This document shows positions 2,584 to 53,476 of a stretch of DNA of 63,473 nt, one piece after another. The notes under the pieces were generated by a model. That model saw only the letters and a list, made by a program, of their open reading frames with translations. It made no database searches and was not told the DNA's origin. Position numbers and translations under genes: made by a program. This DNA comes from Bdellovibrionales bacterium (lineage in GTDB: Bacteria; Bdellovibrionota_G; JALEGL01; JAGRMV01): the NCBI GenBank assembly GCA_020434365.1, contig JAGRAX010000002.1:1-63473 (forward strand), read 5' to 3'. Position 1 is the stretch's first letter. Each line of letters starts with the position of its first letter.

Positions 2584-2606
2584 GGCTACATTATTTTTAG
2601 GCTTAT

Positions 2607-4625: not shown

Positions 4626-4637
4626 ATTACTCTTATC

Positions 4638-4690: not shown

Positions 4691-4772
4691 TTCAAATTGA
4701 TAAAAAGCTCTCAGACTTTCTCAATAAAACGTTGAATTCATGTAAGAAACATATGACAATGTTTCTCCTATC

Positions 4773-22191: not shown

Positions 22192-23445
22192 ATGAAACAA
22201 ATCATATCAAGCAATATCCGAGTATCTAAGGGTCTTGGAGTCATAGAATTGATGATCGCAGCGGTCCTTTTTGCGGGAGTCTTTGCCGCTGGATTTTCTA
22301 TCTTTCAAAAATCCACAAAAAAAGGCGTTGCCTTACAAAAAAACACTAAGAATGTGAGAGAAAAAGTTAAGTTTTTGGATCGTTTCAAATTTGAAATCGA
22401 AAACGCCATTCCTTTTTACAATGCTGAAAATATACGTTTGCAAGTCAACAGGCCTTCGGCTTGTACCTCTGGAGGAGTCTCTACAGTATCATGGGGCGTT
22501 AGACCTTATCCGGGCTATGATAAAAATGAGTACGAAGCTGCAAACAATGCCATCATCGATCCTTCTGACGAAGTTTCTTTATTTGACGGAGTCAATGACG
22601 ACAACGATGCGGTACAGATCGTCTATATTCCACAGCAGAGCTCGTTTATTCGCCTGGCCGTGGATGGATCAAATGAAACCTTTTCCACCAGTGGCGTAAA
22701 TCCTGTGACCGTATCATCGATCGAAAACTTGGCCGTGGGAGATTACGTTGTCGTCATTGATTCAGAGCAATCTGATTTGTTTCGGATCACAAGCATTCAG
22801 AGCACATCCAACGGCTACGATCTCTACCACTCCAGTCGTTCGTATTGGAACCCTGCAGACTTTACACATGAATACGGTGAAAGCGATCCTGACAGTGCTT
22901 ATGTATTTAGAGTCAAAATGGCGAGCTACGCCTTCGATCCAGACAACAACACTGTAGTTCGTGACGACCATTCCTTAGACGATTCTTTTGATCCAGCGAC
23001 GCTGGAGTATCTCCCAGGGGGAGCCGCGGAGATGACACATCAATGGGAACCTGTATTGCTTTCTGCTGAGAGGCTACAAATTCTATATAACTTGTTCAAT
23101 CAAACCGTTCCGATTCGAACACCCCGTATGGGACTTCCCGGAGAGCAGTGTTTTCAAGACATCACCGGGTCATTGGATTGCAGTTGCACCAATCAAATTG
23201 GCATGCCTGGTCTTCAATTTTTTACAACCTCTCTCCAGATTGAGCAAGCTGCAGAGTCCTCGGAGAGCTTTCGCTTCTCACCTCACAATCTAAAGAATGG
23301 AATCGCAAACCTCTCTAGAGGCGCTGAGCTTACAGGAGATCCCGTAGTTCTTGTCAACCAAGAGTACATGGCGACTGAAGAAGCTTATACTGGTGGCGGA
23401 ACCGGAGGCGACGGAGGTCCAAACATCGGTGGTGGAGGTCAATAA
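22192..23445 (+). CDS. prepilin-type N-terminal cleavage/methylation domain protein (PilW-like minor pilin or pseudopilin)
   Basis: 417 aa. The N-terminus MKQIISSNIRVSKG|LGVIELMIAAVLFAGVF fits the G-x-x-x-x-E prepilin peptidase motif, with Glu at +5 followed by a hydrophobic helix. The C-terminus has a Gly-rich tail (GGGTGGDGGPNIGGGGQ). Confidence 0.7.
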   Translation: MKQIISSNIRVSKGLGVIELMIAAVLFAGVFAAGFSIFQKSTKKGVALQKNTKNVREKVKFLDRFKFEIENAIPFYNAENIRLQVNRPSACTSGGVSTVSWGVRPYPGYDKNEYEAANNAIIDPSDEVSLFDGVNDDNDAVQIVYIPQQSSFIRLAVDGSNETFSTSGVNPVTVSSIENLAVGDYVVVIDSEQSDLFRITSIQSTSNGYDLYHSSRSYWNPADFTHEYGESDPDSAYVFRVKMASYAFDPDNNTVVRDDHSLDDSFDPATLEYLPGGAAEMTHQWEPVLLSAERLQILYNLFNQTVPIRTPRMGLPGEQCFQDITGSLDCSCTNQIGMPGLQFFTTSLQIEQAAESSESFRFSPHNLKNGIANLSRGAELTGDPVVLVNQEYMATEEAYTGGGTGGDGGPNIGGGGQ

Positions 23446-23446
23446 A

Positions 23447-27236: not shown

Positions 27237-28537
27237 CTCTTGCTCCTTTGAAGAATTTTGATTTTCATTTCTCGATCTGAAGGATCTGCGCCTTGGACTT
27301 TGTATCCTAGATAACTTTGGGATGTGATTCTTTCCGGTGACAAGCCTAACATTTCTAAATGGTCTCTAACTTTTTTGGCTCTTCGAAATGCCAAGTGAAG
27401 CTCAGAAGCTCCCACATTTGGATCATTAGGTGTAAAGACTGCGATCTCAATTTTTTCTATCCATTGATTTTCCTGCAGCACGCCAAAGAGAAGTTCTAAG
27501 GTCTCTTCACAATTTTCGATCATGATGTCGCTTTCAGGAGCAAAACGTATGGGCTCACTCAAAAGAATTTCTTCATCCGAAATTTTAATCTTTCCTTGAG
27601 TTTCCTGATCAATCACATCCTCGGGACTTGCGCGGCGTTTGGGATCCAAACCATAAGAAACCATCGCAACCACTTGATGATCACCTCCAATGTAGCCGTT
27701 GACTAAGTTGCGCCCATAAGACAGAGAAAAACTCCAAGGCTGGGTCTCATCCCAACGCAGGCCCATCAGCCCATCCATCAGCACATGACTTCCAGAAAAA
27801 CGAAATCGATTCATCTGCCCATACAGCTCAGCAAACAAGGAAAGCTGATGGAAAGATGTAAAAAGATAGGCCACGGCTACATTCCACTCTAGATTTGAAC
27901 CTACAGCAAAATTTAAAAACTCTGTTTTCTTTCGGAATGTAAAACCCAGGTTTGCAGCAAAAATAAAATCCCTATATCTATAGTCCGCGATCACTTTCGG
28001 CGCCAAGCTCAAAAACTCATCCCCTCCAAAATCCACCTGCGATGTCGGCAAACTTGCGTTTGCTTGATAGGCCAAACGAAGCTTTTCCCACCTGTCCGAA
28101 AATAGCCTGCCTCGAACAAAAAGATAGAGGTCTCCCAAACCTCCAGAGCGGATATCGGTAATGTTGGCCACTGACTGTTTGGGTCCCGATTGGTCCAAAA
28201 TGATAGGCATAACAAGACCTATATTTAGACCGTACTCCCATCCAAAATTCACGCCCAGCTCAGAATACAAGCGATGTCCTAGAATTGAATCCACAAGATC
28301 ACCTTGATCTGAATAAATGGCTACAGGCCGATGCATGAAGCCCAGACCACTTTGCAATTCTATGTGTTTTTCCTCAATCATCTGCGCGCTTTCAGTCATC
28401 ACCCAGGGACCGGCTCCAGGAGCCCTCCAATGTCTGGGGAAAAGCGTAAAATCTGTGGCTTGAAGAGACGAGCAACATAGAAATGAAACAAGGACCAAAA
28501 TACGGCCAAGCCATCGATATGGAAAAAACAAATACAC
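27233..28537 (-). CDS. outer-membrane beta-barrel protein with a C-terminal OmpA-like domain
   Basis: 434 aa with a signal peptide. Alternating aromatic and hydrophobic beta-strand patterns run through ~aa 300. The C-terminus (IRFAPESDIMIEN...IEIAVFTPNDPNVGASELHLAFRRAKKVRDHLEMLGLSPERI) resembles an OmpA_C/peptidoglycan-associated domain. Its stop overlaps the start of the TSP3 gene (ATGA). Confidence 0.65.
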   Translation of the reverse strand: MYLFFPYRWLGRILVLVSFLCCSSLQATDFTLFPRHWRAPGAGPWVMTESAQMIEEKHIELQSGLGFMHRPVAIYSDQGDLVDSILGHRLYSELGVNFGWEYGLNIGLVMPIILDQSGPKQSVANITDIRSGGLGDLYLFVRGRLFSDRWEKLRLAYQANASLPTSQVDFGGDEFLSLAPKVIADYRYRDFIFAANLGFTFRKKTEFLNFAVGSNLEWNVAVAYLFTSFHQLSLFAELYGQMNRFRFSGSHVLMDGLMGLRWDETQPWSFSLSYGRNLVNGYIGGDHQVVAMVSYGLDPKRRASPEDVIDQETQGKIKISDEEILLSEPIRFAPESDIMIENCEETLELLFGVLQENQWIEKIEIAVFTPNDPNVGASELHLAFRRAKKVRDHLEMLGLSPERITSQSYLGYKVQGADPSDREMKIKILQRSKR

Positions 28538-28749: not shown

Positions 28750-30543
28750 ATGAAATCCAAAACACATCAATTTGGAAAATACTTTTTAGAAAGGCGCATT
28801 GCAGTAGGAGGAATGGCTGAGGTCTTCAAAGCCACCTTCTCTCCAGCCGAGGGCATTGAAAAAGATGTCGCCCTAAAAATCATTTTGCCCGACCTCAATG
28901 AGGAAGAAGAATATCGCAATCTCTTTGTGGAAGAAGCCAAAATCTCTGTAAAGTTCAATCATCCCAACATTGTCCAGGTCTATGATTTTGGCGAAATCAG
29001 CCAAAGATATTTTTTCGCAATGGAATACATCCAGGGTCTCAACGCGAAAAGTTTGATCAAAAAATCATACCGCGAACAAAGTGTGATCCCCATTGAAATT
29101 GCCTGTGAAATTGTAAGGCAAATTCTTTTTGCGCTCGACTACGCCCATAACCTCACGATCAATCAAACTCATCAAGATGTCATCCATAGAGATGTGAGTC
29201 CGCAAAATATTTTGATCTCTTTTGATGGAATCGCGAAACTCACGGACTTTGGAATCGCCAAAACTTCTTTGAGAAGTTCAAAAACCAAAACAGGTGTCGT
29301 CCGAGGAAAAATCAAATACATGTCCCCGGAACAAGCCTATGGCAAGGAAGTCGATCAGCGTACCGATCAATACGCACTTGGAATTGTTTTTTATGAACTT
29401 CTGGTAGGAATGAACACCGGCGACTCAGAAATGATCGGCCCAGACCTAGCACCTGTAACCGCCTATCGAAAAGAAGTTCCCGGAGCCATCGAAAAAATCA
29501 TCAAAAAAATGACTTCTTCTAAGAAAGAAGACCGCTTTTCTAACTGCAAAGAAATCATCCGTGAAATCGATACCATTTTACAACCCTTTCCAAGCAACAA
29601 TTTACGTAAGCGTCTGGGACAATGGGTACAAGGCGTAGAAACCAAATATCCTAGCGCAAACGAAGACTTATTGATTGAGCCTTCTTCCCAATGGAAAACA
29701 GTCAACAGAAGCTATGTCAAACGAGCCATTCGCCCCGGTATAAGTTTGGTATTTTTTCTTGTCGTCGCCTTTGTATTTTTCCCCAAATACCAAGAATGGA
29801 TGAAGCAAGATGCCGCTGCAGAATCTGTACGCATTGAAACCCAAAAAGAAGTCTCTGACACTCCCCCAAACACAAAAAATTCCAAACAAGTGGCAGATAT
29901 ATCACCCGCAAAACCCACAAGTGAAAAAGCAGCATCCAAAATTCCCATCGTTAAAACTCAAGCGCGTTGCCCCAGAGGCATGATCAAAATCACTGGAGGA
30001 TCTTTTCTCTATGGCTCTGAGGAGAAGGACCCAGATCGCAACGCATATACAGAAACTTTGCTTCACGACGAAACCCTTAACAGTTTTTGTATTGACCAGT
30101 ACGAATATCCCAATCAAAAGGGTCAATTTCCCATTACGGGAACGCCGTGGGAGCAGGCCTCTCAAATGTGTGGCCATCAAAACAAGCGCCTATGCAGCGA
30201 AGCGGAGTGGGAACGAGCGTGCAAAGGTCCCGATCAAAGCAATCGAAATTTTAGTTATGGAAGCACCTTTATCGCAGAGTCTTGTAACGTTGGAAATCAA
30301 GAACCCAACTCTCTACCTTCAGGATCTTTAGATTCCTGCGTTACCGATGAAAAAGTATATGATCTAACTGGAAACGTCGAAGAATGGGTTTCAAGTTCTG
30401 GGCGTTTTCGAAAAGACTTCAAGCTCACCAAAGGAGGCGCCAGTCATATTTCTTCATGGGCAGGAAGATGCGCCTCAAATCAAGAAAGTCCTCTCGATAA
30501 AAAAAGTCCATGGATCGGATTTCGATGTTGCAAGAGCCTATAA
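28750..30543 (+). CDS. Ser/Thr protein kinase fused to an extracytoplasmic FGE-sulfatase (SUMF1-like) domain
   Basis: 597 aa. The kinase region has GGMAEVFKA, ALKI, HRDVSPQNILI, DFGIAK and YMSPEQ. A TM segment (ISLVFFLVVAFVFF) follows. The C-terminal domain has GGSFLYGS...RLCSEAEWERACKG...GNVEEWV...KGGAS...GFRCC, the FGE-sulfatase pattern. Confidence 0.85.
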   Translation: MKSKTHQFGKYFLERRIAVGGMAEVFKATFSPAEGIEKDVALKIILPDLNEEEEYRNLFVEEAKISVKFNHPNIVQVYDFGEISQRYFFAMEYIQGLNAKSLIKKSYREQSVIPIEIACEIVRQILFALDYAHNLTINQTHQDVIHRDVSPQNILISFDGIAKLTDFGIAKTSLRSSKTKTGVVRGKIKYMSPEQAYGKEVDQRTDQYALGIVFYELLVGMNTGDSEMIGPDLAPVTAYRKEVPGAIEKIIKKMTSSKKEDRFSNCKEIIREIDTILQPFPSNNLRKRLGQWVQGVETKYPSANEDLLIEPSSQWKTVNRSYVKRAIRPGISLVFFLVVAFVFFPKYQEWMKQDAAAESVRIETQKEVSDTPPNTKNSKQVADISPAKPTSEKAASKIPIVKTQARCPRGMIKITGGSFLYGSEEKDPDRNAYTETLLHDETLNSFCIDQYEYPNQKGQFPITGTPWEQASQMCGHQNKRLCSEAEWERACKGPDQSNRNFSYGSTFIAESCNVGNQEPNSLPSGSLDSCVTDEKVYDLTGNVEEWVSSSGRFRKDFKLTKGGASHISSWAGRCASNQESPLDKKSPWIGFRCCKSL

Positions 30544-34348: not shown

Positions 34349-36019
34349 CTATAACCATTTTGGATCCACATATTCACCAAAAGCATCTCGAAACACATCA
34401 CAGATCTCCCCCAAAGAAGCATAAGACTCTACGGCCTCCAAAATATAGGGCATGAGATTGTCCGGTCCTCGCGCAGCTTGCTCGAGCTTTTGCAGACTCT
34501 TTTGCACTTTGCCAGCGTCTCTCTTTGCTTTTGCTCGACGCACATTTTCGATCTGAATTTTTTCAACCTCTTCATCAACCGTCAATGTCTCGATTGGAGT
34601 CTCGTTTTCTTCAATATATTCATTGATGCCCACGATGATTTTTTCTCGGGTCTCCAGCTGCTTTTGATAGAGATAGGCAGCATTTCCGATTTCTTTTTGA
34701 GGATAGCCTTTTTCAATGGCCTCAATGATGCCTCCCATCTGATCGATGTTTTCAATATACGTCAAAGCCTGCGCTTCCATCTCATCAGTCAGAGACTCCA
34801 CAAAATAGCTTCCCCCAAAAGGATCTGCAGTCGCCGCCACACCTGATTCCTGCGCAATGATCTGCTGCGTGCGAAGCGCAATGCGAACCGTCTCCTCAGT
34901 GGGCAAGGCCAGGGTCTCATCCAGAGAATTGGTATGCAAAGACTGCGTCCCCCCAAGTACAGCCGCCAAGGCTTGCACTGCAGTCCTCACAACATTGTTG
35001 TAGGGCTGCTGCGCCGTGAGCGAACATCCGGCCGTCTGCGTATGAAAACGACACATCATGCTCTTGGGGTTTTTTGCGCCAAAACGCTCTTTCATAATGC
35101 GGGCCCAAATTCTTCGGGCGGCGCGATACTTGGCAATCTCTTCAAAAAAATCATTGTGCGCATTAAAGAAAAAAGACAAGCGCGGCGCAAAGTCATCGAC
35201 ATCCATTCCCGCCTCAATCCCCGCCTCCACATAGCCAATTCCATCAGCCAAAGTAAAGGCCAGCTCCTGCACAGCCGTCGAACCTGCCTCTCGAATGTGA
35301 TAGCCGGAAATCGAGATGGTATTCCACCTGGGTACATGATCTTTGGCAAAAGACATCATATCTGTAATGAGCCTCATGGAGGGTTTGGGCGGATAAATCC
35401 ATGATTTTTGGGCAATGTACTCTTTTAATATGTCGTTCTGTGTGGTTCCACCGATTCGGTCCCAAGACACGCCCTGCTTTTTGGCCACTGCCAAATACAT
35501 CGAAAACAAAATCGTCGCTGGCGCGTTGATGGTCATCGAAGTCGTGACTTGATCCAAGGGAATGCCTTGAAAGAGCGTTTCCATATCCTCGAGCGTATCG
35601 ATCGAAACCCCTGTTTTTCCCACTTCACCCCGGGAGCGATCATGATCCGAATCGTAGCCCATAATCGTCGGCATATGAAAAGCTACCGACAAACCCGTTT
35701 GACCCTGACTGAGAAGGTAATGATAGCGAGCATTTGAGTCTTTGGCCGTCCCAAAGCCCGCAAACTGTCTCATGGTCCAGAGCTTTCCCCGATACATCGT
35801 GGGATGAATCCCTCGCGTATAGGGATACTCTCCGGGGTTTCCCAAATCTCTCTCATAATCGAGGCCAGAAACATCTAAAGGTGTATAAAGCCGGCGAATC
35901 TCATGATTGGAAATCGTGGAAAAATGCTCCTGCCTCTCAGGTCTTTTCTCTAGGGTGGGTTTGAGCGTCTCTTCTTCCCACTGCGCAAGCTGACGCTCTA
36001 GATCTTTCACATCCGCCAT
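34349..36019 (-). CDS. icmA: acyl-CoA mutase large (catalytic) subunit, probably isobutyryl-CoA mutase
   Basis: 556 aa. The TIM-barrel mutase motifs are [65 protein letters not shown] and [20 protein letters not shown]. The positions matching Tyr89 and Arg207 of Propionibacterium methylmalonyl-CoA mutase (RQYAGF and FMVRNTY) are Phe (RQFAGF) and Gln (YIAQKSW) here. Confidence 0.7.
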
Positions 36020-37174: not shown

Positions 37175-37277
37175 AGGCCGCCGAGTTTTTCACAAAAGCC
37201 CCCAGGACTCAAGAAACTAATCATACGCGATGTGTTAAGAAGCCCTCCGCCATGATACTTAAAGTGTTCTTACAAAC

Positions 37278-40200
37278 CTACGAGCTGGGCTTGAAAATCT
37301 GTATGGTTGATTCTTCTTCATTCGCACCAAACCATTTCCAACTGATTTCTTCTTCAACTTTCGAAAAGAATTCTTGTCTCGTAAATACTTTTCCAAACCA
37401 TGCAGAATCAATAAACAAGTCATTGTCAGGGTCGTACACCACAGTATGAGGAATTTCTGTTCCATCGCCTCCAATAAAAATTACAACTTTGATCTCCGTC
37501 TTAACGCCCTTCGAAGAGAAAAACGCTTGAAGACCCAAGGACTGTTCATGACATAAAGCTGCTTTTTCAATCAAGACTTCAGCAAAGTGTGGTTTGGATA
37601 AACCTGCTTCGACATTTAGTGAAGCAATTTCACGCCTCAAATGAGATCTGTGGTTTGTTAGACCGATGATATAATCACCCTCGGGTCTGGATCTTTGTCT
37701 TATAAAGTCTATGGCCTTCTGGTAAAAGCGCTGCTGGTAACCCTGAACCCTAATGGCAGGAATCGATATATGCGACATTTCATGAATAAACTGCTTTAGA
37801 TATGGCGAATACACATTATGATCATACCCAAAGAAATTATCAACAACACTTTGGTATCCCTGAACTTCTAGTTCGATGTTTGAAATGGGCCGTGAAAAAT
37901 TGTTAAGACTTCTAGCACCTTCATATGAAAACTCTTGAAGAGCTCCAGGGTGATTACTAAAATACCTTTGATACGACTGAATCGCGGTACTACTTTCGGA
38001 TGTAAAAAACTGGGTTTCTTCTGGCCCTACTCGAATATTTGTAACGTCCGACTGATGGAACTCAATATCTTCAAGACTATCATTGATAGGTTTGTAGATA
38101 GAGAATTCTGATTCATTATTGTAGTGAAGAAAATCTCTCCATCTTCTATTGTTTCTCCACGTTGCAAAATCTGTCACGACTCGAGAGTAGTTAGAATCTA
38201 TCATTAAGCCTGATGCCGGATGAAAAAAAATCGCATGAATTTCTCCCACACCCAGAGTTCCAAGCCGTACTTTTGATTCCAGCCCATATCTTGCCGCAGT
38301 AAAATGCAAGAATGTAGAAAGCTCCAAACATGCCGCATCTTTATGAGAAAGTACTTCCGCCCAGTGCGCGACGCCATCCAAAGAATCAGGATATCCCACA
38401 CCATTGAAACCATAATCAGCAGTCCCAATATTTGACCGTGGTGATTCATACTTTTGCGCAAAAGCCATCATTTTCTCAAAAAAATCTTTCAGCTTGTTTG
38501 GCTGATCCAACTCAGCCATCACTTTAGCTCTGCCTCCTATGTATTGATCAAACGCATTGGACAATCTGATAAGATCATCTCCCATAATACCTGCTCGATA
38601 ATTATCTGTAAGAGCTCTCATGGCCCCTCCCCTGGGATCATAAAACACCTCTTGGGAGATTCCACTTCGCTCTGCTCTACGTATTCTAATGGTATTGTGA
38701 TCAATACTTTCTTCAGCAACACCACCACGCAACTGATCAAACTCAGTTTTTCTAGAATCAATCAAGATCCCTTCCTCATCAAAATAGCTTTGATAACGTT
38801 CAATTTCATCCACAAATTGTTTTTTTTGATCGAGAGAAAAAGTTTTTCCATTGACATGATATTTTCCACCTCCGATCGAGAGGTCGTCAAAATACATCAA
38901 TATATTTTCCATGCGATCAATCTGAGCCTTCCATCCAGCGCCCCCATTTTGACTTCTTGCAAAAGCCACAAAATAATCCAAACCGTTCCATGGATGATTC
39001 ATTAAAAAATCTTGTGCCAAAATCCTATTCATATAACCCGATCTTATGATGTCTCCTGCGTTCCAACCAAAATTCATGTTACCCAACACACCTAGGTCCG
39101 CTAAGACCTTGATTTGAGTTTCAATCGAATCATTAGATATCGAAAGATTATTTCGCCTTGCATAGGATTTGCAATAATCAATGAACGTGTTGATGGCTTC
39201 TCTTTTTTCTCGACTTACAGAGTTTGACAAGCCAAAAGTTGTAGCAACATTGGAAGAAGCATCGTTGCCCGTCATATGAACATAATATGCAGCACCCATG
39301 AGCTCTCTTTCAGCTTGAGTTGACGGTGAACTTGAGAGGATACCCATCGTCTGCATAAAACCATCCCAAGCGCTTTGCTGTCCACTGAGTTCATCCAGGT
39401 TTGTAAAATAGCTAAGCACTTCACCATTGGGTTCCATGTTATATGAACGAGCGTTTTGAGATAAATTTCTGACACGATCATCTACAGCGCGCAAAGATCT
39501 AATTTTATATTCAAATGTATCCTTAATTCTAGATACGATCGAACTCTCCACCCCTCTGCGATTTAGAATAGATATCAAGTCATCAAAAGCTTTGGCGGCT
39601 TCTTCTTCTTTACCTTGATCTAAAAGAATTCTAACTTGACGTAGTTTTTCCAATCCTTCTGTCTCACGAGAAAGAACAACCAAGAATTCTGTGAATTCGA
39701 ATTTGGAATAGGATCTAAATACGCTATGTTTTCTCAAAGCAATAAACAATTCTCTTTCTTGAGCAATAAAACCCGAGAAATCATCTAAAGATGAATACAA
39801 ATTCTTCTCTCCCAGAACCAACATCGTTCTTGCATAAGCAGCTAGATCTATAATTGCAGCAAGCCCAGCAACAATAGCACCTATTTCCAATCGATCAATA
39901 TCATCGGCATAGCGAAGCATGAGATTGATATGATGATAAAATTCACGACTCGTAGCCTGAGTTCGATATTGATTCATAGAAATACCAGAGCCCGTCGAAT
40001 TGTTATGAAATGTTTCAGACTTCATTGTAGCCAAAGAAAAAAGAGTCGAGGCTTCATACAAAGACATCACAAAACCTATTTTGGAAATCGCTGACAAAGA
40101 AACACCGTAAAAAGCAACTCCAGGTGCCAAAACAGCTCCGATACCTGTAGCTACAGCTGCCCCCATGGTAGCATATCCAGCATATATAAACGCCTTCTCA

Positions 40201-42221
40201 ATATTTTTACTTCTCTCTTCCTCGGCCTCTCTTAGTTCTTCGATATGACTGACCAAGCTTCGAAGTACAATAGAATATGAAGAATTTTCCGAAAGCGCCG
40301 CCCCAATAGCAGAAGGATAATCTCCAACCAACTCAAAGCCACTTTCATAGTATTCTTTGTTGGATTCGGCCTTCATTTGCAAATAAGTTTCAAATTCAAA
40401 TTTTTCCTCTTTGATCTGTTCAACAAGTACATTTTTGTCGGTGGGGCTTGTATTAAAAAAAGATCTTGGAGCATATCGAGCATCCAGAAGAGGTTTATTG
40501 TCTCTAACATCTTGGGTAAAAAGTTTATACCCGAGCCAAAAAAGTTTCTTTGTTGGATATTTTGACCACTGAAGGGTGGAGAGTTTTCTGCATCTTTCTG
40601 GGGCATTTTCTTTAAATTCATCTTTGGCAATTTGAACCACTATATCCAATCGATTTTTATCGATGCTCAATCCCGCTCTCGACATAAAACTCGGGTTCAA
40701 ATATTTTCCGTTTTCTTTGGCTTTTCCTTCTGCAACTTCTTCGGCAGAGTAAATCTTTCCAAACCACTGATAAAACACTTTTGTATTGGTGATCAGGGCT
40801 ATACTAGGATGCCTAAAAATAACATGTAAGATTCTTTCGTATTCACTGGACCAATACTTTCGTAAAGTTGGATCATTGGCATAATATCGAAGATTTTTTT
40901 TCGTATGATCAAAGTCTGTCATTAAAAATCTAATGATCTTAAAATCAGTCTTTGCTTGTTCACCAAGAGAGCTTTGATCCACGGCATGAAAGACTCGATG
41001 TAAGTCCACAGCTTCAGAGCGAGTCGCTCCCTCACCCAAGAGTCGTTGAAGCTCTTCAACCCCTTTTTTATCTTTGCTCCAGCTATTTTGAATCTCTCTC
41101 AAATGTGACCGTGCTACTGAAATTCCCTGAAGAACTCTTTTGTTTCCTACATTCCAGGCATAATCAAAAGCGACTCCATCCACTTTTCTTTTCTTTAAAA
41201 AGGTTTGACTCACAATACAAGACTGAGGATCCACAGAACCTTCTCCATATCTTCCATTATAATAAACCATGGATTGAGCCATTTGAATTCTTGCAAGCTC
41301 TACTGCATTACCAAGAAGTAGTAGTGTTGAGAGATCAAATTTCTTTGAATCATTTGCTGTATTGTATTTTACATCAAGGGGTTGTGTACCAGGTGTCATT
41401 ACTGGAACAATTACATGCTCATCAGTTGCCTCGATCCATGACATAAAAACTTTCATAGATCGAACATCATCGAAATACTGCAGGCCAAAACTTTCGTAGC
41501 TATTGATACCTGCCCCTACAGATCTAATGATCTGCTTTAGATATTCACTCAGATCATCTGTTTTATAATAAACGTCATTGAGCATATAACTTGTAACAAA
41601 CGATTGTGCTCTCCGGATTTTTTGAGAAAGAACAAAAAAACCCTGATCCTTGCCGACTTTTTCTGCTGATGTAGAATTGTAATAAGACCATAAAAAGAGT
41701 GTTGCCTCGTGAATCACCTGAGCAATGTTTTGCACATTTGAATAGCGCAATTTACCGAAAGACAGGTAATCTAGTGCATCAATATACAACAACAGTTTTG
41801 CCTGCTGTTCCTTTGAGACTCCAGGTCCACCTTCATCGCTGGCCAATTGAAACATTTGATATCTTCGAGCTCGATTGAGCAAGAGATCATTGAGCCCAAG
41901 CAGAGCTTGCTGAGTCTGTTCAGGCCCTTTTCTTGCTTCAAGAAGACGGGCATCTTTTACCAATTGCTTGTGAATCGCAAAAGGGTTTGAACTGCTTAAA
42001 GCATAGGCATTGATAAGCTCACAACTGACCTCAGTCTTGCTTGCGGTACTCGCAGCTCCACTTTCAAAAGTAAGAAAAAGGGTTTTCTGGCTTTGTCTCG
42101 CACAAATCTTTAGATCTTCCTTCGACAATACTCCTTGACTCGCATAGGCAGACATCGAAAAGAGACAAACCAATAGCAGTGTTAACAATATGGTACTTCT
42201 TAGCGTAACTTGAGTGATCAA
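37278..42221 (-). CDS. giant secreted protein of unknown family with central hydrophobic hairpins and C-terminal tandem Cys-His-Asp modules plus HExxH
   Basis: 1,647-aa uninterrupted ORF. TTG start with a G-rich SD (ccggggggaatt TTG). Signal peptide MITQVTLRSTILLTLLLVCLFSMSAYA|SQG. Hydrophobic blocks at aa 677-733 and 779-804. Duplicated C/H/D modules around C1298 and C1557. HEMSH at aa 1480-1484. Confidence 0.8.
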   Translation of the reverse strand: MITQVTLRSTILLTLLLVCLFSMSAYASQGVLSKEDLKICARQSQKTLFLTFESGAASTASKTEVSCELINAYALSSSNPFAIHKQLVKDARLLEARKGPEQTQQALLGLNDLLLNRARRYQMFQLASDEGGPGVSKEQQAKLLLYIDALDYLSFGKLRYSNVQNIAQVIHEATLFLWSYYNSTSAEKVGKDQGFFVLSQKIRRAQSFVTSYMLNDVYYKTDDLSEYLKQIIRSVGAGINSYESFGLQYFDDVRSMKVFMSWIEATDEHVIVPVMTPGTQPLDVKYNTANDSKKFDLSTLLLLGNAVELARIQMAQSMVYYNGRYGEGSVDPQSCIVSQTFLKKRKVDGVAFDYAWNVGNKRVLQGISVARSHLREIQNSWSKDKKGVEELQRLLGEGATRSEAVDLHRVFHAVDQSSLGEQAKTDFKIIRFLMTDFDHTKKNLRYYANDPTLRKYWSSEYERILHVIFRHPSIALITNTKVFYQWFGKIYSAEEVAEGKAKENGKYLNPSFMSRAGLSIDKNRLDIVVQIAKDEFKENAPERCRKLSTLQWSKYPTKKLFWLGYKLFTQDVRDNKPLLDARYAPRSFFNTSPTDKNVLVEQIKEEKFEFETYLQMKAESNKEYYESGFELVGDYPSAIGAALSENSSYSIVLRSLVSHIEELREAEEERSKNIEKAFIYAGYATMGAAVATGIGAVLAPGVAFYGVSLSAISKIGFVMSLYEASTLFSLATMKSETFHNNSTGSGISMNQYRTQATSREFYHHINLMLRYADDIDRLEIGAIVAGLAAIIDLAAYARTMLVLGEKNLYSSLDDFSGFIAQERELFIALRKHSVFRSYSKFEFTEFLVVLSRETEGLEKLRQVRILLDQGKEEEAAKAFDDLISILNRRGVESSIVSRIKDTFEYKIRSLRAVDDRVRNLSQNARSYNMEPNGEVLSYFTNLDELSGQQSAWDGFMQTMGILSSSPSTQAERELMGAAYYVHMTGNDASSNVATTFGLSNSVSREKREAINTFIDYCKSYARRNNLSISNDSIETQIKVLADLGVLGNMNFGWNAGDIIRSGYMNRILAQDFLMNHPWNGLDYFVAFARSQNGGAGWKAQIDRMENILMYFDDLSIGGGKYHVNGKTFSLDQKKQFVDEIERYQSYFDEEGILIDSRKTEFDQLRGGVAEESIDHNTIRIRRAERSGISQEVFYDPRGGAMRALTDNYRAGIMGDDLIRLSNAFDQYIGGRAKVMAELDQPNKLKDFFEKMMAFAQKYESPRSNIGTADYGFNGVGYPDSLDGVAHWAEVLSHKDAACLELSTFLHFTAARYGLESKVRLGTLGVGEIHAIFFHPASGLMIDSNYSRVVTDFATWRNNRRWRDFLHYNNESEFSIYKPINDSLEDIEFHQSDVTNIRVGPEETQFFTSESSTAIQSYQRYFSNHPGALQEFSYEGARSLNNFSRPISNIELEVQGYQSVVDNFFGYDHNVYSPYLKQFIHEMSHISIPAIRVQGYQQRFYQKAIDFIRQRSRPEGDYIIGLTNHRSHLRREIASLNVEAGLSKPHFAEVLIEKAALCHEQSLGLQAFFSSKGVKTEIKVVIFIGGDGTEIPHTVVYDPDNDLFIDSAWFGKVFTRQEFFSKVEEEISWKWFGANEEESTIQIFKPSS

Positions 42222-42541
42222 AATTCCCCCCGGAATAAATACTGCGTCGCAGTGTACAACAATTTCTTTACAAAATCAACATCCACCCCTGAAGGTAAAG
42301 CAATTTTTGTTCCAAAAAAATATGTAAAAAAAAACATGTAGTTACATTTTGGATGTGCTTATATTTTGCTCAATTAAAAAGCTGTGAATATGGATTCGTG
42401 ACCTGAAGGTCTAGAGGGTATCACCATTCATTGTAGATGTTAACATTGATATCCGAAAACATGCCAAATTAAGCCCCAAAAATGCGACGTAATCACCCCA
42501 AACAGAAGGCTCAAAGCCCTCAAAACCCCTCAAATTGGGGA

Positions 42542-42571
42542 TTGACAGTTGGAATGCTTTTTGCTTATAAT
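42542..42571 (+). promoter_or_regulatory. near-consensus sigma70-type promoter for the 42614 gene
   Basis: TTGACA (42542..42547), an 18-nt spacer, then TATAAT (42566..42571). It lies ~43 nt upstream of the ATG, and GGAGGG sits at 42601. Confidence 0.5.
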
Positions 42572-42613
42572 GACGCAGTTGTAACACTTAGAATTTCCGA
42601 GGAGGGAAATGTC

Positions 42614-43237
42614 ATGAAAAAATTTTTAGCATTATCAACAATTGGAGTTTTAGCTGCTTTGATATCTACGCAAAGTGGATTTGCTCAGGAAGATCTCGGC
42701 AAATATAAAGTTTTGGAGATCATGGTTGTAGATGGAGATAACCCAGGAGAAGTCATAGAAGACGCTGGTATAAGGCTACGATCCACCTTCACTCAAGAAA
42801 CAGAAACAGGAGAAGACGGTGTTGCTTCTTTGGTGGTACCTGTTGGAGTCCAAGGAAAATTAAGTATATCAGCTATTGGGTACCAAGCAAGAGAGATTAA
42901 AGTCCGTGACATTACAAACATCGGCAAAAAGATAGCTGTTGTATATCTGTATTCAAACGGTGGAGATAGAGTTGAAACCTATGATTTTAAGTTTAGAGTA
43001 GTCAATTTAAATGTCTCAGATAGTCCTTTAAAAGGTGCTATGGCTTTGTTTATTGGAACGTCTACAGGAGATTTTACGGATGAGAACGGCTTGGTAAGTG
43101 TGGCTCTGTCTTCAAAAGAAGCAAAAGGCAAAAGCATCAAAATTGCTTTGGAAGGTTATGAAACCGCTTCCTTTAAGCTTACACCATCCATGAGAAACGG
43201 TGTGACAGATGTATATTTGACACCTGTATCTAAATAA
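42614..43237 (+). CDS. small secreted protein with two carboxypeptidase-regulatory-like beta-sandwich repeats
   Basis: Start moved to the ATG at 42614 (MKKFLALSTIGVLAALISTQSGFAQ) with GGAGGG 7 nt upstream. Two similar units are present: GEDGVASLVVPVGVQGKLSISAIGYQAREIKV and DENGLVSVALSSKEAKGKSIKIALEGYETASFKL. Confidence 0.6.
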   Translation: MKKFLALSTIGVLAALISTQSGFAQEDLGKYKVLEIMVVDGDNPGEVIEDAGIRLRSTFTQETETGEDGVASLVVPVGVQGKLSISAIGYQAREIKVRDITNIGKKIAVVYLYSNGGDRVETYDFKFRVVNLNVSDSPLKGAMALFIGTSTGDFTDENGLVSVALSSKEAKGKSIKIALEGYETASFKLTPSMRNGVTDVYLTPVSK

Positions 43238-43385: not shown

Positions 43386-43754
43386 CTAGCGGCAGCGAAA
43401 AGACACGAGCGTTGTGTATTGAGAGTCTTCGGTTGCGATGGCGCTGGCGTTTTCGGCGTCGCCTACGCCGAAGATTGTACCGATTTGGCCTACTTTTCTT
43501 ACGGTTTTGGCGGCCTCTTCTGTAAGACTGCCGGAGTATGTTGTTTCTGAATTCAGGAGCATATAGGCTTTGTTTTGGCGCGCGCAGTGTTTGGCGGCGA
43601 GCGCCTCTGATTTTTGTTTGGAGGCTTGCTCATCGCTGTGCACATATTGCAATCGATAGCTTCCATCTTCTTGCAAAGACACAGGATACTTTTTTCCCGC
43701 ACAGGAAACAGCACATAAGAACACGAGCGTATACAATCCAAATCTTTTGATCAT
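43386..43754 (-). CDS. hypothetical lipoprotein
   Basis: From the internal ATG at 43754 the N-terminus reads MIKRFGLYTLVFLCAVSCAGKK (lipobox AVS|C). The ORF track starts 9 codons upstream at 43781. No family recognised. Confidence 0.55.
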   Translation of the reverse strand: MIKRFGLYTLVFLCAVSCAGKKYPVSLQEDGSYRLQYVHSDEQASKQKSEALAAKHCARQNKAYMLLNSETTYSGSLTEEAAKTVRKVGQIGTIFGVGDAENASAIATEDSQYTTLVSFRCR

Positions 43755-50651: not shown

Positions 50652-51740
50652 TTATACAAAGGCTTTATAGAGAAAATCGAGCAAAATCACCAGAACGATG
50701 ACAAAAAACACATATCCAGACCATTGCAGAAAGCTTTGCAATCCTTTCGAAGAAGCCGTCGCTTTTTTTACGACCACGCTTTTCATACGTTTCTTAGATA
50801 TGTCTGGCAGGGCTGCATTGATACTAAAACCCACGACCGGAAAAAGGCTCTGCAAAAAGGCTTCGACCTCTGTTCGGCGTGAATTGGGATAGTGAATCCG
50901 AAGAACTCTGGCCAAATCATCGGCCATACTTGGACCGTCACGATATCGATCGTCTGGATCATGTGCGAGTGCGCGCATCACGACATCATTAAGCATAGAT
51001 GGAACATCTTTTCTTTTTTTATGTAATGGGGGGACTTTGCAGGCGCGGACCGCATCTAGGGTTGCCTGCTCATTCTCTCGAAGAAATAGTCTCTTAGACA
51101 AAAGAATTTCATGCAGCATGACTCCCACACTGAACAAATCTGAACGATGATCCAATACTTCACCAAAAGATTGCTCAGGAGACATATAACTGAACTTTCC
51201 ACGAATGACTCCAGGCTGCGTCTGAACGCCCTTATTACGAATCTCCGCTATCCCAAAATCAGCGACTTTTGCTTGGCAATTTCTCGTTACCAAAATATTG
51301 GGTGGACTGATATCTCGATGAACAATTCCCAATGGCTGATCATAGTGATCTCTTTTGACATGTGCGTAAGCCAAACCTTCGCATACATCCATCATAAGCC
51401 ACAGAGCGACGTCTACAGGAAAAGGAACATTCATTTCCATCTGCTGACGAATGACATCACTCAAAGCTTTGCCATTGATCCATTCCATGGTGAAAAAATA
51501 AGAGTCCTGAATTTTTCCAAAATCCAACATCTGAACAATGTTGGGATGTCTCAAACTGATTACAGCGCGGGCCTCATCCAAAAACATTTGGATGAATTTT
51601 TTTTTGGATGCAAAATTGGGATGGATGCGTTTGAGGGCAATCGGTTCACCATTGGCAGCGTAGGCGAGATAGATTTCTGCCATTCCCCCCACAGCCAATT
51701 TTTTTTCAATCGTATATTTCCCGAAACGAAGCGCCATCAT
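50652..51740 (-). CDS. Ser/Thr protein kinase (Hanks type) with a C-terminal membrane anchor
   Basis: 362 aa. GGMAEIYLA, ALKR, HRDISPPNILV, DFGIAE and YMSPEQ. The C-terminal TM segment is YVFFVIVLVILLDFLY. It resembles the kinase domain at 28750. Confidence 0.85.
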   Translation of the reverse strand: MMALRFGKYTIEKKLAVGGMAEIYLAYAANGEPIALKRIHPNFASKKKFIQMFLDEARAVISLRHPNIVQMLDFGKIQDSYFFTMEWINGKALSDVIRQQMEMNVPFPVDVALWLMMDVCEGLAYAHVKRDHYDQPLGIVHRDISPPNILVTRNCQAKVADFGIAEIRNKGVQTQPGVIRGKFSYMSPEQSFGEVLDHRSDLFSVGVMLHEILLSKRLFLRENEQATLDAVRACKVPPLHKKRKDVPSMLNDVVMRALAHDPDDRYRDGPSMADDLARVLRIHYPNSRRTEVEAFLQSLFPVVGFSINAALPDISKKRMKSVVVKKATASSKGLQSFLQWSGYVFFVIVLVILLDFLYKAFV

Positions 51741-52138: not shown

Positions 52139-53476
52139 TTATTCACAAGAAGTGAATTTGATCTCTACTTCGTCACCAAAATCTAGATCGTTGGCGCTAT
52201 CGAGGACCACTTTCTGGCCTGCAGCCACATAGCTAAATGCGCTCGTAGACACCCCTTCAATTTTGACACTGATGTCATCTTCATAGCCTGAACACACAGC
52301 ATCACTCAAGTGAAAGGTCGTGACCAAGGACACCGTTTCAGACAGATCATCTGCTAGCGTTGAAAGCGAGGCATTGAAGGCCGACTGGTTGCCATTGGTA
52401 GCATCCGCAAGGTCTGTAATGGTGTTATTTCCCATGAGCTGCGCAATCTCAATCCCAAAATAAAGAGGTCCATTTTCGCCTCCTGTAGGGAATGAAGAGC
52501 CTGGAATATAACTGATCGTAGACACGGCAACCGGCAAGGCATTGTTAAAATCCTTCAAATCATTGACGAACTTTTGAGGTGTGAGTTCCAACTCATACTC
52601 TCCCATGGCATTGGGCGTAGCTTTGGAATAGAACTCTTTTCGAAACTCTTGTTCCAAACAATCAACATCCCGAGGACTGTCATTTCCAGAGTTAAATTGC
52701 TCTGCAAATTTATAGTTCTGGCTACAATTGTTATTTGCACTTGCATGACCATAGCTTTGGGCCTCAAGCAAATTATTTGAGTCACTGAGACTGCCGCCGA
52801 TGTCGTTCTCATCCGCTACAAACACATAGGCCTGGCCTGCATTAGCACGCTGGCAACCTTTGGCCATGTTGTATGTGGTCGCATTGGAGTTGGTAAAACT
52901 CTGGTGCGCTGAATATACCAAAGCCTCTCCGCCATCCGACGGTTCGGTATCTTTGAACCATGACTTATTGTGGTTATCCATAATGTACTGAAGATTCTGG
53001 CCAAACTTGCTTACAATCTGGCTATTACTCAAGTTTGAAGAGCAGAGACACTCTTGACCGGCTACAGCGCCTTGAACCTTACCGGATCTGGCTCCACCAT
53101 GTCCTACCATCGCAGCCACGCAGTAATCCACAATTCCTTGAGAGTTCATCGTTGATAAAAAGTTAGTAATTGCATTTTTCAGCGCATTAAACTCCTGGCT
53201 CATCGAACCGGAACTGTCTAAGACAAAATACAAATCTACAGGAAAGTTCCCTGAACTATTGGGTTGATCAAAGGTATTGGTAACATCATAGTAGGTCAGC
53301 AGTGGATCATCTCCTGTGCCTGGATCTTTTTCTTTTTTGATCACTGAAGTCGGATCATTATTTTCCGACCTGGTAAAGGCTGACAAACCCCAACCATATC
53401 TCTCACCCCCACAATACGATAAAAACAACGCGGCGCTGACCACAAGGGCCCCCCCTGACAAAGCTTTGATTTTCAT
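52139..53476 (-). CDS. von Willebrand factor type A (vWA) domain lipoprotein
   Basis: 445 aa. MKIKALSGGALVVSAALFLSYC|GG (lipobox LSYC). MIDAS motif DLYFVLDSSGSMS (DxSxS). Nine Cys residues are spread through the mature protein. Confidence 0.8.
   Translation of the reverse strand: MKIKALSGGALVVSAALFLSYCGGERYGWGLSAFTRSENNDPTSVIKKEKDPGTGDDPLLTYYDVTNTFDQPNSSGNFPVDLYFVLDSSGSMSQEFNALKNAITNFLSTMNSQGIVDYCVAAMVGHGGARSGKVQGAVAGQECLCSSNLSNSQIVSKFGQNLQYIMDNHNKSWFKDTEPSDGGEALVYSAHQSFTNSNATTYNMAKGCQRANAGQAYVFVADENDIGGSLSDSNNLLEAQSYGHASANNNCSQNYKFAEQFNSGNDSPRDVDCLEQEFRKEFYSKATPNAMGEYELELTPQKFVNDLKDFNNALPVAVSTISYIPGSSFPTGGENGPLYFGIEIAQLMGNNTITDLADATNGNQSAFNASLSTLADDLSETVSLVTTFHLSDAVCSGYEDDISVKIEGVSTSAFSYVAAGQKVVLDSANDLDFGDEVEIKFTSCE

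Follow-up and report, generated by a model that had tools for sequence, protein, structure and literature searches.

The largest gene of the window (the whole 63,473-nucleotide stretch of DNA analyzed here) encodes a protein of 1,647 amino acids with the features of a signal peptide at its N terminus and no relative among the public proteins searched. It ends in a duplication whose two copies share an invariant Cys, His and Asp, and the similarity of this duplication to the PF01841 (Transglut_core) profile was above that of every control. Our preferred reading, to which we give somewhat less than an even chance, is that this is a lineage-specific, Sec-exported multidomain protein whose working end would consist of two highly divergent thiol-enzyme domains of the transglutaminase-like (papain-fold) type. 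Judged by its sequence, the host is an uncultured Bdellovibrionota-like bacterium related to the predatory Bdellovibrionales. The features of the gene and its product are listed in Table 1.

Table 1. Features of the giant gene and its product, with their positions in the window.
Feature	Residues	Position	Strand	Remarks
Complete ORF	1-1647	37278..42221	minus	1,647 codons plus stop, TTG start
Shine-Dalgarno-like GGGGGG		42226..42231	minus	direct sequence reading; 4 nt 5' of the TTG start
Signal peptide	1-27	42141..42221	minus	MITQVTLRSTILLTLLLVCLFSMSAYA/SQG (slash, predicted cleavage); negative Hessa energy, A-x-A motif, no lipobox
N-terminal region	28-677	40191..42140	minus	no recognizable domain (no Pfam, NCBIfam or PDB match)
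Hydrophobic pair H1/H2	678-735	40017..40190	minus	Kyte-Doolittle 1.7-1.8
Hydrophobic segment H3	778-803	39813..39890	minus	LEIGAIVAGLAAIIDLAAYARTMLVL; contains E779, D792 and R798
Middle region	804-1239	38505..39812	minus	no recognizable domain; only sub-threshold FIMAH, aa 859-910
Repeat 1	~1240-1380	38082..38504	minus	putative transglutaminase/papain-fold domain; C1298, H1329, D1342
Inter-repeat linker	1381-1499	37725..38081	minus	lone HExxH (HEMSH, aa 1480-1484, window 37770-37784)
Repeat 2	1500-1647	37281..37724	minus	second copy; C1557, H1592, D1605

The next-largest ORF of the window is 741 aa long, in agreement with the first-pass annotation, which had singled out this gene as the largest. 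The start site differs between two public gene calls: P0001 begins 11 codons later (1,636 aa), and P0002 has the long start. The chance that 1,647 codons stay open at random is about 5e-49, and the GC1>GC2>GC3 coding signature was uniform across all eleven blocks of 150 codons. An independent Logan assembly of run SRR7638773 matched the sequence base for base (100% identity over 18,968 bp). The giant ORF is a real gene. That it is non-functional, whether misassembled, fused from pseudogene pieces or open by chance, might be suspected from its being a singleton with homologues found nowhere. We regard this as extremely improbable, because the open frame and its codon-position signature, the identical sequence in an independent assembly, codon usage typical of the genome, the presence of a signal peptide and a Shine-Dalgarno-like sequence, and an ancient internal duplication that is still in frame all argue against it.

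Homologues were then sought on a large scale. A word-indexed search of 5.8 billion clustered proteins with the whole protein returned only the protein itself, and the same was true of aa 448-1647 when phmmer was run exhaustively against 1.84 billion representatives. A word-indexed search with aa 28-680 was empty; since the protein itself was not returned either, this is a weaker negative. The repeat profile retrieved nothing from the 5.8 billion proteins in a word-indexed search. Scans of the whole protein and of seven segments against Pfam, NCBIfam, PADLOC and PHROGs gave nothing apart from the sub-threshold FIMAH match in Table 1, and a PDB sequence search with the whole protein and the repeat profile gave no match. 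No relative was detected by pattern and tblastn scans of genome contigs, viral contigs and metagenome contigs, the last in two rounds of which the second used the repeat alignment, and no paralogue or remnant was found by tblastn in the window and 80 mutase loci. As far as sequence comparison reaches, the giant protein is a true singleton, with no detectable relative in the billions of public proteins searched. The annotation had called it an orphan of no recognizable family. Its orphan status proved more extreme than could be seen from the window, and Pfam left the family unrecognized for the whole protein and its segments. The absence of a recognizable family stands for about 1,240 residues, but the C-terminal ~400 aa form a tandem duplication whose resemblance to the transglutaminase-like (papain-fold) superfamily exceeded that of every control tried. 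In the absence of orthologues, conservation under selection cannot be shown.

The N terminus was judged by rule (tripartite structure, small residues at -3 and -1, no lipobox) rather than with a trained predictor. It has an n-region with R8, an h-region of about 12 residues (ILLTLLLVCLF) with a Hessa sum of -0.3 kcal/mol, and a c-region, SMSAYA/SQG, with Ala at -3 and -1 that predicts cleavage at A-Y-A/S. The h-region is the only segment of the protein with a negative Hessa insertion energy. These are the features of a Sec-dependent SPase I substrate, as the annotation had claimed in describing a clean Sec signal peptide. A lipoprotein identity was rejected because there is no lipobox. We propose that the TTG-initiated precursor is exported via Sec and cut after Ala27, and that the N-terminal part of ~650 aa and the middle part of ~440 aa would be novel scaffold or targeting modules.

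When the protein was compared with itself, aa 1286-1378 aligned with aa 1545-1645 at 30% identity (E of 2e-8 pairwise and ~1e-7 against the whole protein). This is the only internal repeat of the protein. From this alignment, the C terminus is an ancient tandem duplication, newly found here. MAFFT carried the match further upstream, and the Cys, His and Asp stayed invariant between the copies, with a Cys-His spacing of 31 residues in repeat 1 and 35 in repeat 2 and a His-Asp spacing of 13 in both. Cysteine is rare in the protein (8 in 1,647 aa), and two of the eight are the aligned pair in the repeats. The enzymatic look that the annotation had noted at the C terminus therefore has a basis in conserved Cys, His and Asp residues present in two copies of ~30% identity. 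The linker between the repeats contains HEMSH, and a zinc metalloprotease was considered on this ground and rejected, as the motif is not duplicated and no metalloprotease family matched. An HExxH is expected by chance about 0.05 times per protein (arithmetic from amino-acid composition), and HEMSH presumably fails the PROSITE zincin pattern at one position.

A transglutaminase relationship of the repeats was first suggested by eye and then tested. As a reference we used a profile of eight genuine PF01841 domains, each with an E value of 1e-20 to 1e-29, which were taken from plasmids because a regex search found no genuine transglutaminase domains in the 1.4 Mb of fetched loci. When the two-repeat alignment was compared with this profile by hhalign, it scored 22.9 in local mode (P = 0.0048) and 21.8 in global mode (P = 3.8e-4), and the alignment set C1557 and H1592 on the catalytic Cys and His of the PF01841 domains. 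None of 150 column shuffles reached these scores (local 10.6±1.9, global 2.8±2.0), nor did any of 157 natural 155-aa segments (maximum 20.1 local and 9.5 global). Five unrelated profiles of eight sequences each gave 9.7-15.5 local and 1.2-9.9 global. Repeat 1 alone exceeded all 157 natural controls (23.2 local, 16.6 global), and repeat 2 alone was not distinctive (13.5 local, 6.6 global). The hhalign probability for the two-repeat alignment was only 7-15%, and the third catalytic position was assigned to H1334/D1597 and not to the invariant Asp. Transglut_core was not matched in Pfam by the whole protein or the seven segments, even at E≤10; a HMMER profile of the eight reference domains did not find the repeats with its filters off; and hhalign against the PeiP sequence alone gave nothing.

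Structure prediction was applied to the same region. A single-sequence AF2 model of aa 1271-1647 was unusable (pLDDT 36). With the two-row alignment, the model of repeat 2 reached a mean pLDDT of 57.6, with 70-79 in most of the core. In this model of low to medium confidence, a helix leads into four strands, of which strand 2 carries H1592 and strand 3 carries D1605. A papain-like core consists of a helix with the Cys at its N terminus and a following antiparallel sheet in which strand 2 bears the His and strand 3 a polar residue (PMC10318531). The predicted core resembles this arrangement except that the Cys lies inside a long helix and not at the helix N terminus. Foldseek searches with the model gave nothing significant, the best E values being 0.36 in the PDB and 0.01 in the viral library BFVD. 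Among the weak matches, about 15 of the top 50 PDB chains have a papain/transglutaminase fold (PeiW/PeiP, USPs, Pan2 and arylamine N-acetyltransferase), and N-acetyltransferase and PeiP recurred among those in BFVD. The AlphaFold and Foldseek check put forward in the annotation thus showed an enrichment of papain/transglutaminase-fold chains in which no single match was significant. According to the profile and model results, the C-terminal repeats are probably two very divergent transglutaminase/papain-type Cys-His-Asp domains, a fold call of only moderate confidence because HMMER, Pfam and Foldseek stayed non-significant.

The fold, catalysis, location of the C terminus and substrate that we infer would fit together as follows. 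In each repeat the nucleophile would be the cysteine (C1298 or C1557). H1329 or H1592, on the next-but-one strand, would activate it, and D1342 or D1605, on the following strand, would orient that His. Their substrate would be an amide or isopeptide bond, in a protein or a cell-wall peptide located outside the cytoplasm, which the domains would cleave, deamidate or cross-link. The prey envelope is our favored target because of the lineage; the producer's own envelope could also serve.

The same data bear on whether the protein is an enzyme. As a structural, adhesive or scaffold exoprotein, it would carry its Cys, His and Asp as structural leftovers of the duplication, and the likeness to transglutaminases would be fortuitous or reflect an inactivated fold. 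Papain-fold domains without activity are common, every standard homology and fold search was non-significant, and further large exported proteins of the repeat or adhesin-like type are encoded in the window. We nevertheless consider such a role quite unlikely. At 30% identity all three triad residues are still identical, in canonical order and spacing; the similarity to the PF01841 profile beat every control; and the protein has no adhesin-type repeats, its single duplication being its only internal repeat.

Three hydrophobic segments were located at aa 678-706 (H1), 709-735 (H2) and 778-803 (H3), which upheld the annotation's report of hydrophobic regions in mid-protein; they are moderately hydrophobic and rich in small residues. 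Gly, Ala, Ser and Thr make up 44-55% of H1 and H2, with small-xxx-small runs at residues 687-703. The Hessa sums of H1 at lengths of 19-23 residues, and those of H2 at 19-21 residues, lay between +3.2 and +5.2 kcal/mol; at 23 residues H2 gave +7.4. Because the sums were mostly +3 to +5 kcal/mol, H1 and H2 are marginal as membrane segments. The Kyte-Doolittle hydropathy of all three segments was above the usual transmembrane threshold, and their flanks had no K/R bias, that is, no positive-inside pattern. Going by these properties, the segments do not look like classical stop-transfer anchors. Three genuine transmembrane passes would place the C-terminal domains in the cytoplasm. In our preferred reading, Gly/Ala-rich, moderately hydrophobic helices at aa 678-803 would associate the protein with a membrane.

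These segments are central to the model of the first-pass annotation, that of a self-translocating AB-type toxin or predatory effector. Its N-terminal part would bind a target cell, the hairpins at aa 678-803 would insert into the membrane of that cell, and the C-terminal Cys-His-Asp modules would be delivered across it. The layout is consistent with this by analogy with CNF1, PMT, DNT and the large clostridial toxins: a signal peptide, a long N-terminal part, mid-protein hydrophobic helices and C-terminal thiol-enzyme-like modules. The segments are marginal on the Hessa scale, rich in Gly, Ala, Ser and Thr, internally charged and free of positive-inside bias, and such marginal hydrophobicity is expected of helices that are soluble during export and insert later. 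However, helices buried inside an ordinary soluble domain would give the same picture.

The locus was examined for further indications. The gene is separated by 103 bp from the start of an acyl-CoA dehydrogenase gene downstream (at 37174) and by 392 bp from the likely start (42614, MKKF...) of a divergent CarboxypepD_reg-like gene upstream, and both non-coding flanks agreed with those given in the annotation. Its description as a single-gene unit lacked support, as no terminator-like site turned up in a consensus scan of the interval from the stop codon to the downstream gene. The flanks contained no RNA element in Rfam and tRNA scans. The neighbors are acyl-CoA metabolism genes, an Orn/DAP decarboxylase gene and genes for a 112-aa lipoprotein and a 207-aa secreted CarboxypepD_reg-like protein. 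The neighboring mutase shares 78% identity with its counterpart in the MAG 'Bdellovibrionales bacterium HKST-UBA31', and synteny extends through the surrounding operon. The slot of the giant gene, the lipoprotein gene and the CarboxypepD_reg-like gene holds different genes in the nearest relative found. Since the apparent island includes the Orn/DAP decarboxylase gene, it is better termed a gene-order difference from a fairly distant relative. The window also encodes large exported repeat/adhesin-like proteins with FG-GAP and thrombospondin type 3 repeats.

The giant gene has a G+C content of 39.4% (GC3, 32.6%), compared with 48-50% for the mutase operon and 39.3% for the other neighbor (42482-43237), and several other genes of the window are similar to it in G+C. 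The annotation's view that the gene differs compositionally from its neighbors is therefore correct for the mutase operon but not for 42482-43237 and several other window genes; of its two hand counts, 39 G+C at 39001..39100 was exact, and 35001..35100 holds 53, not 55. Codon usage (B=0.22) and the dinucleotide signature (51.6 versus 41±13.6) are ordinary for the window. By both measures the gene appears native, and its low G+C does not point to a foreign origin. No tRNA, integrase or flanking repeat was found at the locus, and horizontal transfer or a mobile island was rejected on the basis of these results.

For the toxin model, the relationship of the organism to predatory Bdellovibrionales and the different slot content in the nearest relative found are favorable points. 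Against it, there was no similarity to toxin translocation, receptor-binding or catalytic families in Pfam, NCBIfam, PDB and PADLOC, and PADLOC and Pfam gave no match to trafficking domains of the polymorphic-toxin type (PAAR, Rhs, VENN, MuF and similar). Nothing in the native composition, with no flanking repeats or tRNA, hints at a mobile toxin cassette. Nearby, no gene for immunity, a chaperone or dedicated secretion was recognized. The annotation's report that no such partner is adjacent is nonetheless uncertain, as the genes for the lipoprotein and the CarboxypepD_reg-like protein share the slot and the lipoprotein may be a partner. Taken together, we consider the toxin model unlikely. 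A bolder version strikes us as very doubtful: a new family of Sec-exported, self-translocating predatory effectors, whose glycine-zipper-like hairpins would insert in the prey membrane and deliver a pair of transglutaminase-fold cysteine enzymes to a compartment that the predator has not entered, with the N-terminal 650 aa and middle 440 aa as new targeting folds.

By analogy with TgpA, the protein could instead be a resident of the producer's envelope, which it would remodel or maintain, with the hydrophobic segments as inner-membrane anchors. TgpA provides a precedent (PMC3507681), the Kyte-Doolittle values exceed the usual threshold for such anchors, and native codon usage and core metabolic neighbors, with no terminator-like site before the next operon, would suit a resident protein. 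We hold this to be rather improbable. The Hessa energies are positive, charged residues lie within the segments, and there is no positive-inside bias; moreover, three passes after a cleaved signal peptide would put the enzyme domains in the cytoplasm, unlike those of TgpA. DUF3488 and PF01841 were not matched, and a housekeeping role is hard to square with a lack of homologues even in the nearest available relative.

If the preferred reading of an exported twin thiol enzyme is correct, the protein would be an extreme lineage-specific invention in a relative of predatory bacteria, with ~1,240 residues outside every known family and two copies of a thiol-enzyme fold too diverged for standard annotation to detect. 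Proteins of this kind would be an uncharted part of the 'attack' repertoires of predators and a possible source of new enzymes that target the envelope or of new modules for membrane insertion. At present the practical value is limited, as the organism is known only from metagenome assemblies and there are no orthologues for evolutionary tests. As a point of method, an internal duplication used as its own two-row alignment can rescue a fold hint for a singleton.

Compared with PF01841 Transglut_core and COG1305-type proteins, the giant protein has the same Cys...His...Asp order. The likeness extends to a Cys helix, ~15 residues further on a 'G-[ILV]-x-[AS]-[RK]' turn (ARYGLESKVR in the giant protein and R.LGIPARYV in the reference domains), and the strands that follow, first one bearing the His and next one bearing the Asp. 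Between His and Asp the hairpin is shorter, with 13 residues versus about 19-23 in the eight reference domains, and the domains of the giant protein lie below the significance levels of Pfam, HMMER and Foldseek. A tandem C-terminal duplication in a 1,647-aa orphan is an architecture unmatched in the Pfam, NCBIfam and PDB searches run. In the large single-chain AB toxins CNF1, the Pasteurella multocida toxin and Bordetella DNT, an N-terminal part is followed by a hydrophobic translocation region at the center of the chain and, at the C terminus, by a deamidase or transglutaminase of the Cys-His(-Asp) type; this module order is shared with the giant protein. They have one catalytic module, whereas the giant protein has two catalytic-like modules, and to our knowledge they have no Sec signal peptide. 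No sequence or profile similarity was found between the giant protein and the domains of these three toxins, the large clostridial toxins or MARTX in Pfam, NCBIfam and PDB.

TgpA (PA2873) of Pseudomonas aeruginosa lies in the inner membrane and is predicted to have six transmembrane helices; its PF01841 domain is in the periplasm and has transglutaminase activity. The protein is important for viability (PMC3507681). Like TgpA, the giant protein would be an extracytoplasmic protein that pairs hydrophobic membrane segments with a Cys-His-Asp transglutaminase-like domain, in its case as predicted from sequence. TgpA is widely conserved and 668-688 aa long, with an N-terminal DUF3488 that contains five transmembrane helices and a single clear PF01841 domain, whereas the giant protein has a cleavable signal peptide, ~650 non-hydrophobic residues, marginal segments in mid-protein, no DUF3488, two cryptic domains and no homologues. 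The phage pseudomurein endoisopeptidases PeiW and PeiP use a transglutaminase fold as a lytic enzyme acting on cell-wall isopeptide bonds (PMC2989375, PMC4592898). Their size, domain context and the type of cell wall attacked differ from those of the giant protein, and their E values were non-significant; they were nevertheless the weak Foldseek matches of best probability, namely, 8jx4 (probability 0.63, rmsd 2.3 Å over 40 columns), 8z4f and the psiM2 PeiP in BFVD.

As the first-pass annotation had stated, the giant gene is by far the largest of the window, the runner-up ORF encoding 741 aa. Given the off-frame stop density, 1,647 open codons would occur by chance with P~5e-49, and the GC1>GC2>GC3 and purine-first signature was alike in 11 of 11 blocks of 150 codons. 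Therefore, the reading frame is no chance product. We regard a non-functional ORF as extremely improbable. The protein cluster had two members, a 1,636-aa call in the NCBI record and a 1,647-aa call in a Logan assembly of run SRR7638773. The Logan contig was 100% identical to the window across 18,968 bp; an independent assembler therefore yielded the same gene. A run of six G residues precedes the TTG start by 4 nt. Every rule-based SPase I feature was present at the N terminus, in agreement with the Sec signal peptide proposed earlier, and this was the only segment of the protein with a negative Hessa insertion energy (-0.3 kcal/mol).

The spacing reported earlier was also reproduced: the acyl-CoA dehydrogenase gene starts 103 bp downstream, and 392 bp upstream lies the likely start (42614) of a divergent CarboxypepD_reg-like gene. 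A consensus scan from the giant stop to the acyl-CoA dehydrogenase start (37175-37277) found no terminator-like site, so transcription could continue into the mutase operon. For the giant gene, no promoter-like site comparable to the sigma-70 consensus was found. A 12/12 match to this consensus (TTGACA, 18 nt, TATAAT) lies in the divergent intergenic region that the giant gene shares with the CarboxypepD_reg-like gene, 43 nt before the likely start of the latter.

Positions of the giant gene, segments of its product and other features of the window
Feature	Position	Strand	Description
Giant gene	37278..42221	-	1,647 codons, TTG start
Segment H1	aa 678-706		passes Kyte-Doolittle threshold
Segment H2	aa 709-735		passes Kyte-Doolittle threshold
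Segment H3	aa 778-803		passes Kyte-Doolittle threshold
Putative triad, repeat 1	C1298, H1329, D1342
Putative triad, repeat 2	C1557, H1592, D1605
HExxH (FIHEMSHIS)	37770-37784 (aa 1480-1484)	-	inter-repeat linker
Sigma-70 consensus	42542-42571	+
Secreted protein	42614-43237	+	207 aa, signal peptide, weak CarboxypepD_reg-like matches; variable slot with giant gene
Predicted lipoprotein	43386-43724	-	112 aa (MIKRFGLYTLVFLCAVSC...); variable slot with giant gene
ORF without Pfam family	4773-6941	+	722 aa
ORF without Pfam family	23351-25576	+	741 aa
ORF without Pfam family	27233-28537	-	434 aa
ORF without Pfam family	52139-53476	-	445 aa
Ser/Thr protein kinase	841-2583	+	eukaryotic type
Ser/Thr protein kinase	28750-30543	+	eukaryotic type
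Ser/Thr protein kinase	50652-51740	-	eukaryotic type
FG-GAP repeat protein	3096-4625
Thrombospondin type 3 repeat protein	25704-27236

The view that the protein belongs to no recognisable family was borne out by searches of Pfam, NCBIfam, PADLOC and PHROGs, which gave no match for the whole protein. Pfam searches of seven overlapping segments at E<=10 returned solely a sub-threshold FIMAH match, and a sequence search of the PDB had no match. The full-length protein retrieved itself alone from a word-indexed search of 5.8 billion proteins, as did aa 448-1647 in an exhaustive phmmer search of 1.84 billion representatives, aa 1-447 being covered through the word index alone. A word-indexed query with aa 28-680 had no match and missed even the protein's own entry, found by the full-length query; negatives from such sub-fragments are therefore to be read with caution. 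No relatives were found in 185,579 species-representative genomes, in JGI metagenome contigs (scanned twice) or in IMG/VR contigs. At the sequence level, the giant protein is a singleton family, with about 1,240 residues outside any assigned family. Four more sizeable ORFs of the window lacked a Pfam family (E<=1e-5), and proteins without an assigned family therefore appear common in this genome. Within its 63 kb, the window also carries three genes for Ser/Thr protein kinases of eukaryotic type, of which one has TPR repeats and another is fused to an FGE-sulfatase-like domain.

The gene had been described as compositionally unlike its neighbours, on hand counts of 39 G+C at 39001..39100, which was correct, and 55 at 35001..35100, where the count is 53. 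Its G+C content was 39.4% and its GC3 32.6% (44.2±2.9% and 42.3±5.3% on average for the window genes). This differs from the G+C-rich acyl-CoA operon (48-50%) but not from the neighbour on the other side (39.3%), and several further window genes were at 39-41%. In codon usage, its distance from the other genes, taken as a pool, was among the lowest (B=0.22), and the dinucleotide signature was 51.6 versus 41±13.6 for windows of the same size, 20% of which were equally or more deviant. Around the gene, no tRNA and neither flanking nor tandem repeats were found. With codon and dinucleotide usage within the window's spread and no such island marks, a foreign origin inferred from composition was rejected. 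The whole window carried no rRNA, tRNA or Rfam elements.

The adjoining methylmalonyl-CoA-mutase-family protein was 78% identical to that of the MAG Bdellovibrionales bacterium HKST-UBA31 (locus L001); the second-best match, from an uncultured delta proteobacterium, was at 70%. For so strongly conserved an enzyme as the mutase this identity is modest, and by this measure the two genomes are not close. They share the gene order PGK-TIM-SecG ... thiolase-3HCDH-ECH-[x]-ACAD-mutase-B12-ACAD. Slot [x] holds one 284-aa multi-pass membrane protein in L001, and an Orn/DAP decarboxylase, the 112-aa lipoprotein, the CarboxypepD_reg-like protein and the giant gene in the window. No trace of the giant gene was found in L001; this means no more than that two genomes this far apart do not have the gene in common, and does not demonstrate a recent insertion. 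L001 has an insertion of its own elsewhere in this cluster: secG and the thiolase gene are separated by the gene (2055-5054, + strand) for a 999-aa protein, unrelated to the giant, with a hydrophobic pilin-like N terminus. Thus, in both genomes a large lineage-specific gene interrupts the metabolic cluster. The lipoprotein and the 207-aa secreted protein had no family assignment in Pfam, PADLOC or PHROGs, and could conceivably be partners or immunity-like factors of the giant protein.

A segment-against-rest BLAST revealed exactly one internal repeat, aa 1286-1378 versus 1545-1645 (30% identity; E 2e-8 pairwise, ~1e-7 against the whole protein), which MAFFT lengthened to aa ~1240-1380 (repeat 1) versus 1500-1647 (repeat 2). 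The invariant columns include each copy's only Cys, one His and one Asp, spaced 31/35 (Cys-His) and 13/13 residues (His-Asp) in repeats 1/2. The shared motifs, K-x-A-x-C...G-[LV]-x-[ST]-[KE]-[VI]-[RK]...H-x-[IV]...L-x-I-D-S, suggested the transglutaminase-like superfamily, an idea that was then put to the test. The linker contains the protein's lone HExxH. Adjoining it, SIPAIRVQGYQ was the best, non-significant HMMER match to GIPARvvsGY of the transglutaminase profile, with Tyr at the expected Cys position; this stretch could represent a third copy that has degenerated, or a chance likeness.

A search with a hand-written consensus yielded 531 plasmid records; among the matches listed, most with an annotated feature were named transglutaminase family or domain proteins. 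Eight diverse domains, 8/8 matching PF01841 (Transglut_core) at E 1e-20 to 1e-29, were aligned into a profile. Run with this profile and without filters, HMMER did not detect the repeats, and they showed no PF01841 membership in the Pfam sense. With hhalign, the score of the two-repeat alignment against the profile was 22.9 in local mode (P 0.0048) and 21.8 in global mode (P 3.8e-4). The profile's catalytic Cys and His were matched by C1557 and H1592, and SSKGVKTEIKV was paired with RTLGIPARYV. The controls were 150 column shuffles of the alignment (local 10.6±1.9, maximum 17.0; global 2.8±2.0, maximum 10.8), 157 natural 155-aa segments taken from the remainder of the giant and from further proteins of the window (local 11.4±2.0, maximum 20.1; global 3.0±1.7, maximum 9.5) and five unrelated 8-sequence profiles (local 9.7-15.5; global 1.2-9.9). 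Repeat 1 alone outscored every control (local 23.2, global 16.6), but repeat 2 alone did not (13.5 and 6.6); repeat 2 is linked to repeat 1 solely through the duplication. The third catalytic position was assigned to H1334/D1597 by opening an 11-residue gap; the invariant D1342/D1605, where the following predicted strand ends, seems to us the better candidate. Against PeiP alone, hhalign was negative.

Single-sequence AF2 of aa 1271-1647 was unusable (pLDDT 36). With the duplication used as a two-row alignment, the repeat 2 model reached pLDDT 57.6 and pTM 0.54, most of its core being at 70-79. It has a helix (44-71, model numbering) and four strands (77-84, 90-98, 103-106 and 112-115), with the His on strand 2 and the Asp on strand 3. 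As modeled, this would be a papain-like core as defined previously (PMC10318531), except that the Cys lies within the long helix and not at its N terminus. Foldseek returned nothing significant for this model (lowest E-value 0.36 for PDB and 0.01 for BFVD). Papain- or TGase-fold enzymes accounted for some 15 of the 50 highest-ranked PDB chains among these non-significant matches, including the phage pseudomurein endoisopeptidases PeiW/PeiP, several USPs, Pan2 and arylamine N-acetyltransferase; an N-acetyltransferase and psiM2 PeiP reappeared, again non-significantly, in the viral library (BFVD). From the profile and model comparisons, a transglutaminase/papain fold seems reasonably probable for the C-terminal repeats. 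That the protein would instead be a non-enzymatic scaffold or adhesin we find rather improbable.

The hydrophobic segments H1-H3 do not resemble classical stop-transfer anchors, because their best 19-23-residue windows had positive Hessa energies (mostly +3.2 to +5.2 kcal/mol; +7.4 for H2 at 23 residues), they are rich in Gly/Ala/Ser/Thr (38-55%, versus 28% for the whole protein) with small-xxx-small runs at aa 687-703, H2 and H3 contain internal charges, and the flanks show no K/R bias. They would fit helices that pass Sec and associate with the membrane later and, equally well, the buried core of a soluble domain. A self-translocating AB-toxin, a model that follows the toxin-like layout noted in the first-pass annotation, seems unlikely to us; it is an analogy without any homology support.

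We tentatively favor an exported, lineage-specific multidomain protein whose effector end would be the paired transglutaminase/papain-fold domains. Outside the cytoplasm, these thiol-enzyme domains would have an amide or isopeptide bond as their substrate, and the central helices would supply membrane association. Because of the lineage, the prey envelope would be the favored target. The protein would be well suited to expression tests and to structure prediction by better tools. A resident envelope enzyme like TgpA, the membrane transglutaminase of Pseudomonas aeruginosa, has a precedent (PMC3507681) but is hard to reconcile with the zero conservation of the giant, and we think it improbable. 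As to its kind, the most economical view would make the giant protein an exported papain/transglutaminase-fold enzyme of a new architecture, a variant among such enzymes.
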